A DNA stretch of 61,199 bases, counting the filler, from Globobulimina sp. (Eukaryota), in NCBI GenBank assembly GCA_003354225.1. It is 16 parts of 16 records of this genome, joined end to end, with 100 filler letters (N's around TTAATTAATTAA, not from the genome) between each part and the next. Parts side by side here need not be neighbours in the genome. Positions count along the whole stretch, not along the records: positions 11,508 to 15,240 come from PIVH01002178.1; 15 more parts are not named here. One strand, 5' to 3'. The notes beneath the pieces were generated by a model that was given only the letters and a program-made list of their open reading frames with translations, ran no database searches and was not told the DNA's origin. Position 1 is the first letter of the stretch. The number at the start of each line of letters is the position of its first letter. Made by a program: the position numbers and the translations under genes. Below, piece after piece: positions 368 through 61,049 of the stretch.

Positions 368-927
368 TCAAATCCATTGACAAAGATTCCAATCCAATTT
401 ATAAGGTTTTAATTCCAATTCAAATGGGTCTCCACATGTGGCATCAGCATAATTCTTATTTTGTTGAAATACAAAAAATCCCCACATTTGGCCGCATGTT
501 GGAACATTTTGCCTGGAACATGATTCATATTGAAATAAGTCCTGATTTATAAATACTTTCGGATACAGACCAATAACACCCGGTCCTTGCACAGCTTCGA
601 CCTTCCCATTATTATCCTTAATAAACCACTTTCGAACTGTCAATTGATATGGCTTTGAATCGGATATATTGCATTCTTGACATCGCATTTTCATTTCAAT
701 CTCTTTATTCATATCATAGTATGCCGTCTGAGTCGGACACTCAATTTCGATATGATACGAAAATAAATAATTACTTTGTTTTATATTTGATATTTCCGCT
801 ATAAATAATGGTGACGCTCTGCATAAAATACCTCTGGTCACACACGAAGAGGTTGCAATATCACACAACGGATATCGTAATACTGGAACATCCTCTTAAC
901 TCCATCTGCAAAGCTTTTGATGAAAGT
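368..927 (-). CDS. ApaG-domain protein (FBXO3/SKIP16-like C-terminus), 5'-truncated and apparently frameshifted near 895
   Basis: YLFSYHIEI...YQLTVRKWFI...VQGPGVIGLYP...FQYESCS...GQMWGFF are ApaG motifs. Upstream TFIKSFADGVK reads in another frame and abuts a retroelement tail at 928. Confidence 0.8.
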
Positions 928-1013
928 GTAGTAGTGGGACAAAATTCAATCAGGCCTGAGGTCTGATTCCAGACTCACATACAGATTGTTGGAACAACCC
1001 TGCCCTGCGGGAG
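928..1013 (-). mobile_element. 3'-end fragment of the (TAC)n-tailed retroelement family (copy A)
   Basis: Minus strand CAGGGTTGTTCCAACAATCTGTATGTGAGTCTGGAATCAGACCTCAGGCCTGATTGAATTTTGTCCCACTACTAC aligns with 38375-38447 and encodes VSLESDLRPD*. Confidence 0.75.
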
Positions 1014-1048
1014 TGTGAAGTGTCACTTTTTTTGGTTTTTTGTCAGCC

Positions 1049-3837: not shown

Positions 3838-3869
3838 GTTCAAGCAATCTGTGAGTCTGGAGTCAGTTA
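3838..3869 (+). mobile_element. Short fragment of the same retroelement 3' region (copy B, no tail)
   Basis: GTTCAAGCAATCTGTGAGTCTGGAGTCAG matches copies A, C and E. Confidence 0.6.
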
Positions 3870-14802: not shown

Positions 14803-15179
14803 CACTAGCTACCTGTGCCATTAATCACCACACCACGAAGAGTAAATAAATTAGCACACTCCAATCTATTTATAAACACACAAAAATATCTGAAAAATAG
14901 TGAGAGTATATTGTGGAAAGTACGATCCCATACCAAACCCAAACAACAGCCATTCAATAACGTTGCGGACAAACTTGCTGAGATCGGTCGATGTGCCCGA
15001 ATAATTCGAATTATCTGACTGCAAATTATAACTCCACCCAATATGCCAAATATCGCTCCTTCCATTTTAAAGATGGTGTCTCTTTTGATGCCATCAATAT
15101 CCTCGCCGGGATGTTCAAGCAATCGGTGAGTATGGAGCCAGACTTACTCCCTGGCTGAATGTGCCCCTACTACTACTAC
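14803..15179 (+). mobile_element. 5'-truncated retroelement: RNase H C-terminal fragment, short C-terminal peptide and (TAC)4 tail (copy C)
   Basis: WKVRSHT...FNNVADKLAEIG is the RNase H H...N..AD.LA motif. After a frameshift it reads FHFKDGVSFDAINILAGMFKQSVSMEPDLLPG*, then ATGTGCCCC(TAC)4. Confidence 0.75.
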
Positions 15180-15340
15180 CTGACAGTTTCGATGAGCAAA
15201 GCACACAAAAAAAGGGAAGCAAGGATGAATAATATAAAAANNNNNNNNNNNNNNNNNNNNNNNNNNNNNNNNNNNNNNNNNNNNTTAATTAATTAANNNN
15301 NNNNNNNNNNNNNNNNNNNNNNNNNNNNNNNNNNNNNNNN

Positions 15341-15614
15341 AGGAGTCAGGAATTTCCCCATTTTTGGAAAATTGATTGATTGCTGAATAGGCAACCTGGA
15401 CGATTGCTCCGCACAGGGTAGCCTTCGCCATATCAAGTCCCATGGCAGTGATGTTTCTTCCCATAAACTTGATGACCTCCTTGCGTGCCTGGGCGCAACC
15501 GTTCTTCTTAAAATATTCTTTGCGGGGTGGATTCAAGTCATTGTAGTGCTCAAGAGCAGCGAACATGTGTTTGACAGCAGGTTCGGTTTCCTTCAAGAAC
15601 TTTTTTATAGACAT
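15341..15614 (-). CDS. Bacterial hypothetical protein, 3' partial
   Basis: AGGAG Shine-Dalgarno-like site upstream of the ATG; higher GC; no introns. Confidence 0.6.
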
Positions 15615-15728
15615 ATGTTCTTTATTCTCCTTCCCATAAACCTTTACCCGGGTATTTTGTGACAGCTGAAATGCATAGAATATGCGTTTTGAAAATATGC
15701 AAAATTATATACTCGCTAACTCGGGTTA

Positions 15729-16307
15729 TTGCATCAAAAAAGGTGCAACTTTTTTGATGTTTATAAGTCAAAAGGCAAAATCCCCCGGGTATTTTTTGAA
15801 AATGCCGGTGTGCCCAGGGACCTGATTGATTTTATTGATTCGCATATTGAGCAGGCTGAGGAGCTTTTTTCCTGTTTTGTCAGCTATGCAGGCAAGGATG
15901 AAACATTTGCCAATAAACTTTTCGAGAATTTATTGGAACTGGGTATGCGCTGCTGGTTGATCTCGGAGCGGGTGCGTAAAAAAGAGAGATATTATCCGTT
16001 GATTGATGCAGCACTTAATCTCCATGAAAAAGAACTTCTTGTCATGTTGGAGAATTCCCTTGAGAGTGACTGGCTTGAGGGTGAGATTTATACTGCCCTT
16101 GAAAAAGAAGAACAAACAGGGGAGGTGATCCTTTTGCCTATCATACTTGATGATTCGGTAAAGTATTCTGAAAAGCCTTGGGTAGCCAAGGTGCGTAGAT
16201 CAAGGCAGGTGTATGACTTCTCCCTGTGGCAGGATGAAGAAACCTTTAAGGAAATGTTAGACGCACTGACTGAAGAATTGAAATATAGGGGGGACATTGA
16301 ACAGTAA
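15729..16307 (+). CDS. Bacterial TIR-domain (TIR_2) protein; start uncertain
   Basis: YKSKGKIP..F...GVP...FSCFVSY..KD..FA.KL...L...G.RCW...SDWLEGEI..ALE...LLPI.LD...DFS.W, typical of the C-terminal TIR of pentapeptide-repeat-TIR proteins. Confidence 0.85.
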   Translation: MHQKRCNFFDVYKSKGKIPRVFFENAGVPRDLIDFIDSHIEQAEELFSCFVSYAGKDETFANKLFENLLELGMRCWLISERVRKKERYYPLIDAALNLHEKELLVMLENSLESDWLEGEIYTALEKEEQTGEVILLPIILDDSVKYSEKPWVAKVRRSRQVYDFSLWQDEETFKEMLDALTEELKYRGDIEQ

Positions 16308-29364: not shown

Positions 29365-29401
29365 GCAACTATGAGTCTGGAATCAGACTTACGTCCTACT
29401 A
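29365..29401 (+). mobile_element. Internally deleted 3'-end fragment of the (TAC)n retroelement (copy D)
   Basis: TGAGTCTGGAATCAGACTTAC joined directly to GTCCTACTA. Confidence 0.6.
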
Positions 29402-29527
29402 TGTATACTTAAAGTGTTTTCAATATATAGATCTATGTATACTTAAAGTGTATACTATGTATACTTAAAGAATCGGACTTACGTCCTACTATTAAAATAT
29501 ATAGATACAAGTGTTTTCAATATATTC
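29380..29527. repeat. Patchwork of short local duplications
   Basis: GAATC(A/G)GACTTACGTCCTACTAT x2, CTATGTATACTTAAAG x3, AAGTGTTTTCAATATAT x2, AATATATAGAT x2. Confidence 0.85.
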
Positions 29528-38327: not shown

Positions 38328-38447
38328 TTTAATCTACCACCCGGATCCAGCGATGGATCCATTGACAACCTCACAGGGATGTTCCAGCAATCTGTGAGCC
38401 TGGAATCGGATCTCCGACCCGATTGAATTTTGTCCTACTACTACTAC
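38328..38447 (+). mobile_element. 3' end of the (TAC)n retroelement (copy E)
   Basis: Encodes FNLPPGSSDGSIDNLTGMFQQSVSLESDLRPD* (TGA 38424-38426), then ATTTTGTCC(TAC)4; aligns without gaps to the copy C peptide. Confidence 0.8.
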
Positions 38448-38521
38448 AAAAGAAGTGTTTAGAAGTGTGAGCCTAAAAAGTCAATTGGTTAGAACTCTGT
38501 ACTGTAGAAACCAATTAACTC

Positions 38522-38668
38522 AAGAGCATCCTGTCTTCAGCGTCAGATTTTTATTGGGGCAAGGTATAAGCAAACCGTTTCTGGTGACTGATAAAGGTAA
38601 AAACAATATAGGTTTGCCTTCGTTTCTCAGAAACAATAAAAATCTGACGCTGAAGACAGGATGCTCTT
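38522..38668. repeat. Perfect 35-bp inverted repeat with 77-bp spacer
   Basis: AAGAGCATCCTGTCTTCAGCGTCAGATTTTTATTG (38522-38556) and its reverse complement (38634-38668). Confidence 0.9.
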
Positions 38669-39150
38669 TTAATTGTAGAACATTCCGTGGTTATGGCGCT
38701 GGATTTGTGGGTTTGGGAGGCGATATGAGGGTTTGGGAGGTGGATATTGCTTTTGGGAGGAGGGTGAGATGCAGATGAGGAAGGTGGATATGGTGGAGGA
38801 AGGGTATGGAGGAGGTCGAGGAGGAGGAGAAGGCGGAGGTTCGTCTTCGTATCATATGCGAGCGAACCGAGCCATTTACTAGCAAATTCATCGTGATGAT
38901 TGCTCATTGAGAGCATCTTATTAAATAAGATTTGGGTTCAAATCCCAATCATCACGTTTTTATATTTTTATTTTAATTAGTTTTTTTAAAGTAAATTAAG
39001 GTTTTTTCCAATCGTGTGCGTGTTTTCGTTTCCATTTTATACCATCAATAAAACGGAAACGTTTCTATTTTAGTAGGTAGTCAAATAAAAGTTTTTTATA
39101 GGCGTTTTTTGGAATAAATATATATAGTATTATTAATAGAGTATAATGTT

Positions 39151-41248: not shown

Positions 41249-42057
41249 TTATTGAATTGTAAAATGATTTTTTAATGATATAATAATATTTTTCTTAATA
41301 AACATCGAAAATTTTGCATAAAAATTGTTTTTCTCAATCATAATATCTAAATTCGTATTATTTTTCAGTCGGCTTAATTTATAATTCATTGCTACATTAC
41401 ATATTTGTTTCACTTTCTTGCTCATTCCACCCAAACTGTCAAATGCCAATGGTATGAATTTATAACCATTTAATAAGTCCGATTCTAATCTTTCTTCATA
41501 TTTTCTATATTTATCTTTCTCGCCAATTTTGCCCGCCATAAAGTGTGATATATTCTCATTCTCTGTATTTAATTTATTTTCATTGCTATAAATATCACTA
41601 ATAATAACGTCTAACATTACTTTGCTAAACTTGCCTTTTTCATATTCAATACTATTATGTACCCAAATATCCGGTTTCTCACTGATTTTTTCTTTTTTTC
41701 TTGATTTTGTTTCATATGTTACGTCCTCAAATTCTGTCTCAAATACTCTAAATAGATAATATGCAATTTCATCGTGCCTGAAATGATGTGCTTTGGGCCC
41801 AAATCTGCATTTATTTATATGCTCAATCACGTGCTCGTTGTGTATATGTTCGTGGCACTGATTACAAATAACTTTCTTATTCTTATCAATCAACGATAAG
41901 CCATACAAAATACGTATAATTAAATTCCAATTGTTATTTTCCATAAACATCTCATTCAACCAATCAATGCCAATAATATTATTAATAAATGCCATACTTT
42001 TATTTGATCTCCTCGCATTCATCAAAATTCTCTTTCTGATACTTGCTTTATTAAATA
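41249..42057 (-). mobile_element. C-terminus of a CRE/R2-group non-LTR retrotransposon ORF (CCHC knuckle and restriction-like endonuclease)
   Basis: CNQC-x11-H-x3-C, RHD, KPD, LDV, K..KY, FIPLAFDSLGG. Confidence 0.85.
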
Positions 42058-50322: not shown

Positions 50323-50403
50323 GGATCGCATCAGGATTTGAACCTGAATCTTCTGGACATATCCATGCATTAAACACCAGTGCTCTTTTTGAGCTAAGCG
50401 ATA
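50323..50403 (-). pseudogene. tRNA-like element (degenerate; enlarged anticodon loop), related to 60980-61049
   Basis: TATCGCT-TA-GCTC-AAAAA-GAGC-A-CTGG...TCCAG-AAGAT-TCAGG-TTCAAAT-CCTGA-TGCGATC. Confidence 0.65.
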
Positions 50404-60979: not shown

Positions 60980-61049
60980 AGGCCGCCTCAGGGATTGAAC
61001 CTGAATCTTCCGGATCATACATCCAGCGCTCTACTTGAGCTAGGCGATA
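60980..61049 (-). pseudogene. tRNA-like element with 5-nt D-loop and non-canonical anticodon loop (TGTATGA)
   Basis: TATCGCC-TA-GCTC-AAGTA-GAGC-G-CTGGA-TGTATGA-TCCGG-AAGAT-TCAGG-TTCAATC-CCTGA-GGCGGCC. Confidence 0.7.

Follow-up and report, generated by a model that had tools for sequence, protein, structure and literature searches.

A family of APE-type LINEs in a Globobulimina genome assembly with two predicted hairpins within the last codons of ORF2

Introduction

Retrotransposition of zebrafish L2 requires a stem-loop in the 3' UTR, to which the ORF2 protein (ORF2p) binds, and in the stringent LINEs ZfL2-1, ZfL2-2 and UnaL2 a short tandem repeat comes after a 3' stem-loop that shows compensatory changes (excerpts of PMC4176376). 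A hairpin combined with a microsatellite has been described for RTE LINEs, where the start of the target-site duplication (TSD) correlates with the repeat (excerpts of PMC6007223), and monocot L1 elements also possess a 3' hairpin (excerpts of PMC3747384). The family analyzed here shares these respective features with each of the three groups. Unlike ZfL2, whose tail is drawn in the 3' UTR in the excerpts of PMC4176376, it has two hairpins inside the last 18 codons of ORF2, with the first base of the stop codon included; in addition, its covariation alters amino acids, and it possesses an RNase H.

With respect to domain arrangement, the plant Ta11-type and oomycete L1 elements (excerpts of PMC5348765) resemble the family in their APE-RT-CCHC-RNase H order, in which RNase H closes ORF2 on the C-terminal side, and perhaps in an ORF1 with a tentative RRM. 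On the other hand, their RNase H is archaeal-like with Arg at the fourth position, whereas that of the family has His and matches Pfam RNase_H and not RVT_3; they end in poly(A) and not in a TAC tail, and the RT of the family is just weakly similar to that of human L1. The I group (I, Ingi, Nimb, Loa, R1, Tad1, Loner, Outcast; membership after excerpts of PMC4640811) also combines APE, RT and RNase H, but has the CCHC after RNase H (excerpts of PMC5348765), where the family has it before. As far as the excerpts of PMC5348765 go, a CCHC upstream of RNase H occurs only in plant and oomycete L1 with Arg-type RNase H, and is downstream in other non-LTR elements with RNase H. RNase H has also been reported for Proto1 and Dualen/RandI (excerpts of PMC4640811), and short-repeat tails for RTEX and RandI (excerpts of PMC3747384); Proto1, RTEX and Dualen/RandI are, like the family, protist or algal LINEs, compared here by their partial descriptions only.

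Penelope-like elements keep a spliceosomal intron in their genomic copies, as does our candidate, but belong to another class with a telomerase-like RT, whereas the family has a non-LTR RT and an APE (excerpts of PMC4209133); splice sites have also been reported for TART. Foraminiferal retroelements appear to be poorly described, no paper devoted to them being among the 20 matches listed, of 128, in our literature search. That search, which mostly left subscription papers and Repbase Reports outside its scope, returned nothing on this family, on hairpins within ORF2 or on ORF1 introns in LINEs, and the excerpts of PMC11203168, PMC8226300 and PMC13746701 held nothing decisive on the family.

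Results and Discussion

Five copies in the window

The window, which is the whole stretch of 61,199 nt that was analyzed, consists of 16 unlinked contigs of about 3.73 kb each, with N spacers between them; the assembly searched comprises 70.2 Mb in 48,370 contigs. The closest match (75%) to a host enzyme encoded in the window comes from the foraminifer Bolivina argentea, and by this single gene the host would be foraminifer-like. A first-pass annotation of the window had described five related copies of a retroelement ending in RNase H, a conserved peptide and a short TAC repeat. All five were found where it had placed them, except that the start of copy C had to be moved from 14803 to about 14814-14816, after a TSD. 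The features are as follows.

14809..14815, + strand: copy C, 5' TSD of 7 bp, identical to the 7-mer at 15176-15182; its last 2 nt also fit the element
14816..15000, + strand: copy C, C-terminal half of RNase H, with the His loop (WKVRSH) at 14914-14931 and the last Asp helix (NNVADKLA) at 14956-14979; a frameshift follows directly
15001..15101, + strand: copy C, variable C-terminal extension of ORF2
15102..15130, + strand: copy C, hairpin 1 (lower stem 8 bp, upper stem 3 bp, loop 4 nt), ORF2 codons -18 to -9
15136..15156, + strand: copy C, hairpin 2 (stem 6 bp, loop 9 nt), the final base being the T of the stop codon
15156..15158, + strand: copy C, ORF2 stop TGA
15159..15167, + strand: copy C, 9-nt 3' spacer, which is the entire 3' UTR
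15168..15179, + strand: copy C, (TAC)4 tail, its final 4 nt common to the 3' TSD copy at 15176-15182
924..1023, - strand: copy A, 3' end of about 90 nt of the Ser/Asp subfamily, with small internal duplications and a 6-bp TSD (1018-1023/924-929) detected by eye and missed by the script
3838..3866, + strand: copy B, 29-nt fragment at a contig start, with neither stop nor tail
29365..29401, + strand: copy D, damaged fragment in which the 3' arm of hairpin 2, the stop and the spacer are deleted and most of the tail is gone
38328..38447, + strand: copy E, the final 120 nt of an element of the Ser/Asp subfamily, truncated on its 5' side by the start of the contig, with both hairpins, TGA, spacer and (TAC)4 at 38436-38447
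38448..38482, + strand: end of an unrelated MITE-like inverted-repeat element adjoining the tail of copy E

Copies C (about 365 nt), E and A are 5'-truncated LINE ends with intact 3' ends, whereas B and D are damaged fragments. The terminal peptides of copies C and E, each followed by TGA, a 9-nt spacer and (TAC)4, were as the annotation had described them, and so was the RNase H motif of copy C; the latter lies in a different frame from the peptide. Copy E is 100% identical to the 3' end of another genomic locus, L071. Within the window, blastn aligned A with E (83% over 75 nt, E 1e-15), C with E (73% over 79 nt, E 7e-7) and B with C (90% over 29 nt, E 4e-4), and, at E<=0.01, did not align copy D with any other copy; nevertheless, copy D contains an exact instance of the 18-nt family motif. 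A second partial repeat follows copy D at about 29470-29491.

A degenerate form of the 18-nt motif, which provides a practical tag for annotating the family, matched the 70.2-Mb assembly 183 times, with 0 matches for the reversed control. As repeats collapse in such assemblies, this figure is a lower bound on family copies; even so, the earlier term "high-copy" overstates it. The window exaggerates the abundance of the family, since it holds 4 exact matches where 0.16 are expected. The motif does not derive from a library adapter, because ORF2 runs into it without a break and TSDs flank it, and an Rfam scan of the family end returned no family at gathering score (a single chance row, E 0.82).

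Full-length elements and the domains of ORF2

A search with copy C gave 96 candidate genomic matches, of which 40 were scored against it, and the longer ones extended upstream into a whole RNase H. RT and APE were found further upstream, as expected from the annotation's assignment to the non-LTR (LINE) retrotransposons, and the element can be securely classed as an APE-type non-LTR retrotransposon. The element at locus L031 spans about 9.27 kb, with an ORF1 of 1057 codons from stop to stop and an ORF2 of 2027; three others (L033, L035, L128) resemble it, and the ORF2s of a second subfamily have about 1850 aa. A pyrimidine-rich start is followed by a leader of about 1 kb, ORF1 and ORF2, the latter encoding in order a variable leader, an N-terminal domain with no family match, APE, RT, CCHC, His-type RNase H and a 58-aa extension before TGA. 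Thus RNase H lies near the C-terminus of ORF2, its last catalytic helix being 58 residues from the end, and there is almost no 3' UTR, the (TAC)1-4 terminus beginning about 9 nt after TGA; both points had been anticipated from the copies of the window.

Pfam detected RVT_1 (2e-26) and EEP (9e-7) in ORF2; at E<=1 it recognized RNase H in 10 of 11 families and gave no match to RVT_3. The catalytic D-E-D-H-D residues were invariant in all 11 aligned RNase H sequences, two outside proteins included, and the RNase H model (pLDDT 82) had E. coli RNase HI as its best Foldseek match (E 1e-6); by sequence, the sole matches in the PDB were weak ones, across the N-terminal 50 residues, to LC11-RNase H1 (E 0.05-0.1). 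A pattern check located the CCHC about 160-170 aa ahead of RNase H in five of six family ORF2s, the sixth, with a YTDD-type RT motif, having been missed by the pattern. At the position where L1 has a metal-binding Glu, the APE of the element has Asp. The region before APE contains about 250 conserved residues with no family match (approximately residues 1-440 of L031 ORF2) and then a motif at about 445-455 that is common to a deeper clade of outside proteins (P0059, P0061, P0063, P0084, P0003); for this region, an ESM Atlas feature comparison gave just one row, at 0.85. Internal deletions or insertions were observed in L082, L032 and L120, all of which keep the 3' hairpins, with L082 remaining in frame across its deletion.

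With an RT query, rows of the family numbered in the dozens, at 57-95% identity and often within long open frames, and beyond the family came other LINE groups at 25-33% (at least 139 matches, with 138 of 294 candidates scored). It follows that the lineage has diversified into many families, of which several have intact frames. As the full best explanation of these results, an APE-type lineage present in a foraminifer-like host as many diverged, often intact families can be put forward with considerable confidence.

Two predicted hairpins within the last 18 codons of ORF2

Among 85 distinct motif-bearing copies with enough sequence, TGA was found at the same offset in 69, a tail 6-12 nt later in 73 and 1-4 repeat units in 72, 12 copies being damaged; the 3' ends are thus coterminal and the 5' ends vary, as had been proposed. 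Thirty-five of 42 distinct ends were aligned, leaving out five that are truncated or damaged in hairpin 1, L026, in which one pair is broken, and copy A, because of its duplication. RNAalifold predicted two hairpins unaided, both within the last 18 codons. Over 17 pairs and 35 ends, 99.7% of the 595 cells were paired, compared to 22-39% in a slid control, and the covariation score (0.259) was reached by none of 500 shuffles; in each stem, the search motif constrains a portion of one arm and leaves the partner arm free. Two-sided changes were detected in 5 of the 17 pairs and represent few events (about 5-7), as the 35 ends are related. One pair occurs in three states (C-G, A-U and G-C); in another, both subfamilies show a change from A-U to G-C, and G-U forms were observed as well. 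A further two-sided change merely divides the two subfamilies and accounts for Pro/Gly in copy C versus Ser/Asp in copy E, so this amino-acid swap tracks a base pair.

Folded singly, 10 of 12 ends formed both hairpins and two folded otherwise, with modest z-scores (-0.3 to -2.6). A metagenome scan revealed four related loci in one assembly, the host of which may be a very close relative, and the two with complete ends both fold into two hairpins. Across 15 ORFs at 46-90% identity, the synonymous difference was 0.23 in the last 20 codons versus 0.43-0.59 in 21 other full windows. A single codon was used in 4 of 10 terminal invariant degenerate columns compared to 3 of 97 elsewhere (p 0.001), and the paired Leu, Gly and Val codons were fixed in 15 of 15 ORFs.

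Because zebrafish L2 ORF2p binds a required 3' stem-loop, we infer by analogy that the two hairpins may constitute a 3' recognition signal located within coding sequence. The annotation had emphasized a conserved C-terminal peptide; conserved it is, yet the evidence speaks mainly for the underlying RNA structure, and the pattern of codon use suggests that the peptide is kept largely because the RNA is. Unpaired third positions vary synonymously, so some constraint on the protein is also possible.

Target-site duplications and insertion

The TSDs that the annotation had suggested tabulating were sought in 47 truncated copies with both flanks, 9 of which were skipped for damaged ends. TSDs of at least 6 bp were present in 14 of the remaining 38 copies, compared to 3.3% of 1406 mismatched pairs, and absent at that length from 24; one locus is counted twice in this set, as an inverted duplicate, and three lie in a repeated context. 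The TSDs usually open with 1-4 nt that also fit the TAC tail, a feature described for RTE elements too (excerpts of PMC6007223). Eight of the 17 copies with a TSD of at least 5 bp start 54-59 nt ahead of the stop, which corresponds to the base of hairpin 1, but this pile-up of short copies is a hint only, because short-read assembly and alignment edges both favor it. A fixed 5' end at query position 35, which had led us to consider a SINE or a solo LTR, proved to be merely the truncation point of copy C.

The 35-nt MITE-like inverted-repeat end next to copy E (also at L148-L162 and L165) gave 287 matches with at most 2 mismatches, often as outward-facing pairs, and three LINE tails of different subfamilies adjoin the same base of it; L030, L120 and L124 lie in a related repeat. 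An imperfect, MITE-like palindrome of about 165 bp (38512-38675) also adjoins copy E.

ORF1, a candidate intron and stop-free leaders

A pyrimidine-rich start, located about 0.85-1.15 kb ahead of the ORF1 core, is common to six loci. Nine of 12 loci were processed for a candidate intron, one of them without the region; in all eight that remained, an out-of-frame ATG and 5-8 more codons are followed by G|GT...YAG of 58 or 70 nt in phase 1, the removal of which would restore the ORF1 frame. Genomic copies retain this candidate intron, and a host intron candidate, judged by eye, is similar to it.

In 7 of 7 loci, the 5' leader has no stop over 280-337 codons in the ORF1 frame, whereas the other sense frames contain 15-34, with a probability of 1e-8 to 1e-10 per locus for such an open frame. 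Between closer pairs, substitutions in this leader are about equally distributed over the three codon positions, unlike in the ORF1 core, and the amino acids drift. Likewise, the ORF2 leader, which reaches from the ORF1 stop to the first conserved motif of ORF2, is stop-free over its 167-215 codons in 5 of 5 loci, and an ATG or GTG lies no more than about 12 nt from the ORF1 stop. With 44 and 26 occurrences where 24 would be expected per frame, out-of-frame ATGs are not depleted in the 5' leader, which argues against simple scanning. In one contig set, which is probably from the source sample and so not independent, L031 had a depth of about 14-17 versus 4 on its flank; none of the joints listed (15 of 22) fell at the intron, and contigs are unable to show absence.

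On balance we lean towards an ORF1 protein (ORF1p) translated from a spliced mRNA with a first exon of 6-9 codons, with the unspliced RNA serving as template, as the arrangement of the sequence suggests. It is also conceivable, on a more tentative footing, that on the unspliced RNA, ribosomes traverse ORF1 by way of the stop-free leaders and so re-initiate at ORF2 in cis.

No sequence homolog of ORF1 was found among 7017 candidates of 385-1227 aa, in Pfam or in the PDB. An AlphaFold model from 22 sequences was alpha/beta with a pLDDT of 61, 254 of its 701 residues being below pLDDT 50. In this weak model, residues 202-300 aligned with RRMs (Z 5.4, rmsd 3.6, 76 aligned) and with the central domain of human L1 ORF1p (Z 4.9, rmsd 3.2, 75 aligned), both under the Z of 8 that guides use of the tool; it suggests a long helix and an RRM. 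Foldseek gave no match to the model at E<=0.001 in the PDB or BFVD. A reading of ORF1 as a capsid, from ESM Atlas clusters of hexon and NCLDV major capsid proteins (0.92, 178/256), was dropped in view of the alpha/beta model, weak as it is, and no jelly-roll capsid was among the matches listed in its structure searches.

Relatives of the family

A word-indexed protein search detected two close unnamed proteins (62-63% identity in RT), followed by a drop to 35% or less, and a profile search across 1.84 billion representatives added intermediates. RT identity descends in steps from 51-63% for close unnamed relatives to 34-41% for a deeper clade and about 30% for all else. In an IQ-TREE tree of 51 RT sequences chosen from 172, the family grouped with P0001, P0002, P0054, P0060, P0059, P0061, P0063 and P0084 (UFBoot 100), whereas FastTree with all 172 supported the same group without P0084 (0.97) and its extension to P0084 poorly; both trees contain mostly unnamed proteins, and the members of the clade are almost all unnamed. 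All five outside clade proteins with a full C-terminus (P0001, P0002, P0061, P0063, P0084) have the CCHC ahead of a His-type RNase H. This lineage fits neither arrangement given in the excerpts of PMC5348765; by domain order it does not belong to the I group, and by RNase H type it does not belong to the L1 elements with Arg-type RNase H. Against the structures of R2 and L1, the RT gave similar and weak scores (E 3e-26 and 3e-21). That the lineage constitutes a new clade is about as likely as not. Ambal is another protist or algal LINE, the I factor has a trinucleotide tail as the family does, and Dualen carries a second, restriction-like endonuclease; an endonuclease of the Dualen kind was not seen in the family ORF2.

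P0063 is a single ORF of 5035 residues present in two near-identical records. Two close RT fragments (P0055, P0060) stand under bacterial MAG names and are probably mis-binned eukaryotic DNA. The genome contains other LINE groups, one (L133-L138, L144-L147) with an ORF2 of about 1200 aa without RNase H and another (L139-L143) with an ORF2 of about 1450 aa and RNase H ahead of the CCHC, of which L139-L141 are far from the family in the RT tree.

Alternative explanations

If the terminal 18 residues were kept for protein function, the base-pairing would be incidental. Retention of the peptide in the outside relative P0002 (62% RT identity), purely synonymous variation at unpaired wobble positions and a terminal segment that is helical in the predicted model would agree with this; nevertheless, paired four- and six-fold degenerate codons are fixed in all 15 ORFs, unlike in the rest of the RNase H region, amino-acid swaps track base pairs, and P0001 has about half of the terminal residues changed at the same length while keeping every RNase H catalytic residue, which leaves this explanation very improbable. 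Equally hard to uphold is that the copies of about 75 nt represent an element of their own, SINE-like and non-autonomous, that is based on the hairpins: nearly half of the TSD-bearing copies do start at the base of hairpin 1, but the short copies have no common 5' head, include both subfamilies and form a continuum with shorter (28-43 nt) and longer (61-576 nt) ones. A preference of the family for promoter regions, to which the annotation had been led by copies A, C and D, whose 5' ends lie about 25-80 bp from a divergent host ATG, seems improbable too. In a crude ORF test, which misclassed copy D on account of its short first exon, 5' flanks (n = 31) comprised 11 gene starts, 15 gene ends and 5 neither, and all 3' flanks (n = 61) comprised 13, 30 and 18, following the control positions (n = 585; 204, 266 and 115) and revealing no bias to start codons; the genome being gene-dense, any intergenic insertion lies near a gene end.

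As for ORF1, it could be a single frame of about 1060 codons from near the 5' end, the ATG exon and GT-AG signals being a coincidence or a relic. The frame is open from the 5' end of the element through the candidate intron in every locus examined, so a long unspliced ORF1 could be the sole product, and the intron is kept in genomic copies. However, across 8 of 8 loci, with ORF1s at 39-93% identity to the reference, the out-of-frame ATG, the G|GT donor and the YAG acceptor share one phase, even as the intron sequence drifts; a 5'-end motif recurs about 40 nt ahead of the exon ATG in several loci (by eye), and the first in-frame ATG varies between codons 20 and 154. Translation without splicing is rather unlikely. 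The family might also be an ordinary member of a named RNase H clade (Proto1, RTEX-like, Dualen/RandI or a branch of L1) that is new just for its host, and hairpins with microsatellite 3' ends are indeed common in RTE, L2 and plant L1 (excerpts of PMC6007223, PMC4176376 and PMC3747384). The stepwise fall in RT identity, the similarly weak scores of the R2 and L1 structures and a CCHC-RNase H order matching neither arrangement in the excerpts of PMC5348765 count against such a placement, which we regard as possible but doubtful.

Proposed mechanism

The most far-reaching reading, which we offer tentatively and hold to be less likely than not, is an undescribed LINE clade with an RT-CCHC-His RNase H order derived from an independent RNase H capture and with a retrovirus-like split expression, in which ORF1p would come from spliced mRNA, unspliced RNA would be stop-free from its 5' end, ORF2p would be made in cis and the double hairpin would be formed by the element's own codons. 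By analogy with the zebrafish elements, the family itself is probably a stringent-type LINE. The spliced mRNA would give an ORF1p with a coiled coil, an RRM-like domain and Cys/His motifs, and on the unspliced RNA, the putative template, ribosomes would pass the leaders and ORF1 and re-initiate at ORF2 in cis. ORF2p would then recognize the double hairpin on its own RNA, APE would nick the target, pairing of the TAC repeats with the nicked end would prime reverse transcription, and RNase H would remove the template; synthesis may often halt just beyond hairpin 1, giving rise to copies of about 75 nt.

Hairpins within ORF2 codons and a retained ORF1 intron would both be unusual for LINEs. If the model holds, the element would provide a clear natural example of a LINE with dual coding, in which an RNA signal overlaps the C-terminus and stop of ORF2. 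A ribosome finishing ORF2 would therefore have to unwind the structure to which ORF2p is to bind, which would make a testable model for cis preference. Retention of the intron would contradict the expected loss of introns from LINEs, such retention being usually reserved for Penelope-like elements. A further, apparently independent acquisition of RNase H would also be implied, in a combination of order and type absent from the excerpts of PMC5348765.

Other features of the window

On the - strand, an ORF end at 41249-42057 contains a CCHC and a PD...D motif (by eye), which resembles the restriction-like endonuclease end of another non-LTR element. A bacterial-looking segment (15341-16307) with a TIR-like ORF (15720-16307, by eye) is continuous, within a single contig, with a eukaryotic transporter gene that has introns, and represents a chimera, a contaminant or a transfer. 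An exact 119-bp terminal repeat of one contig (34498-34616 and 38109-38227) divides one gene, and we read it as the assembly overlap of a tandem or circular unit. Finally, two related tRNA-like repeats (50327-50403 and 60984-61049; 73% over 77 nt) possibly belong to a SINE or tRNA pseudogene family.
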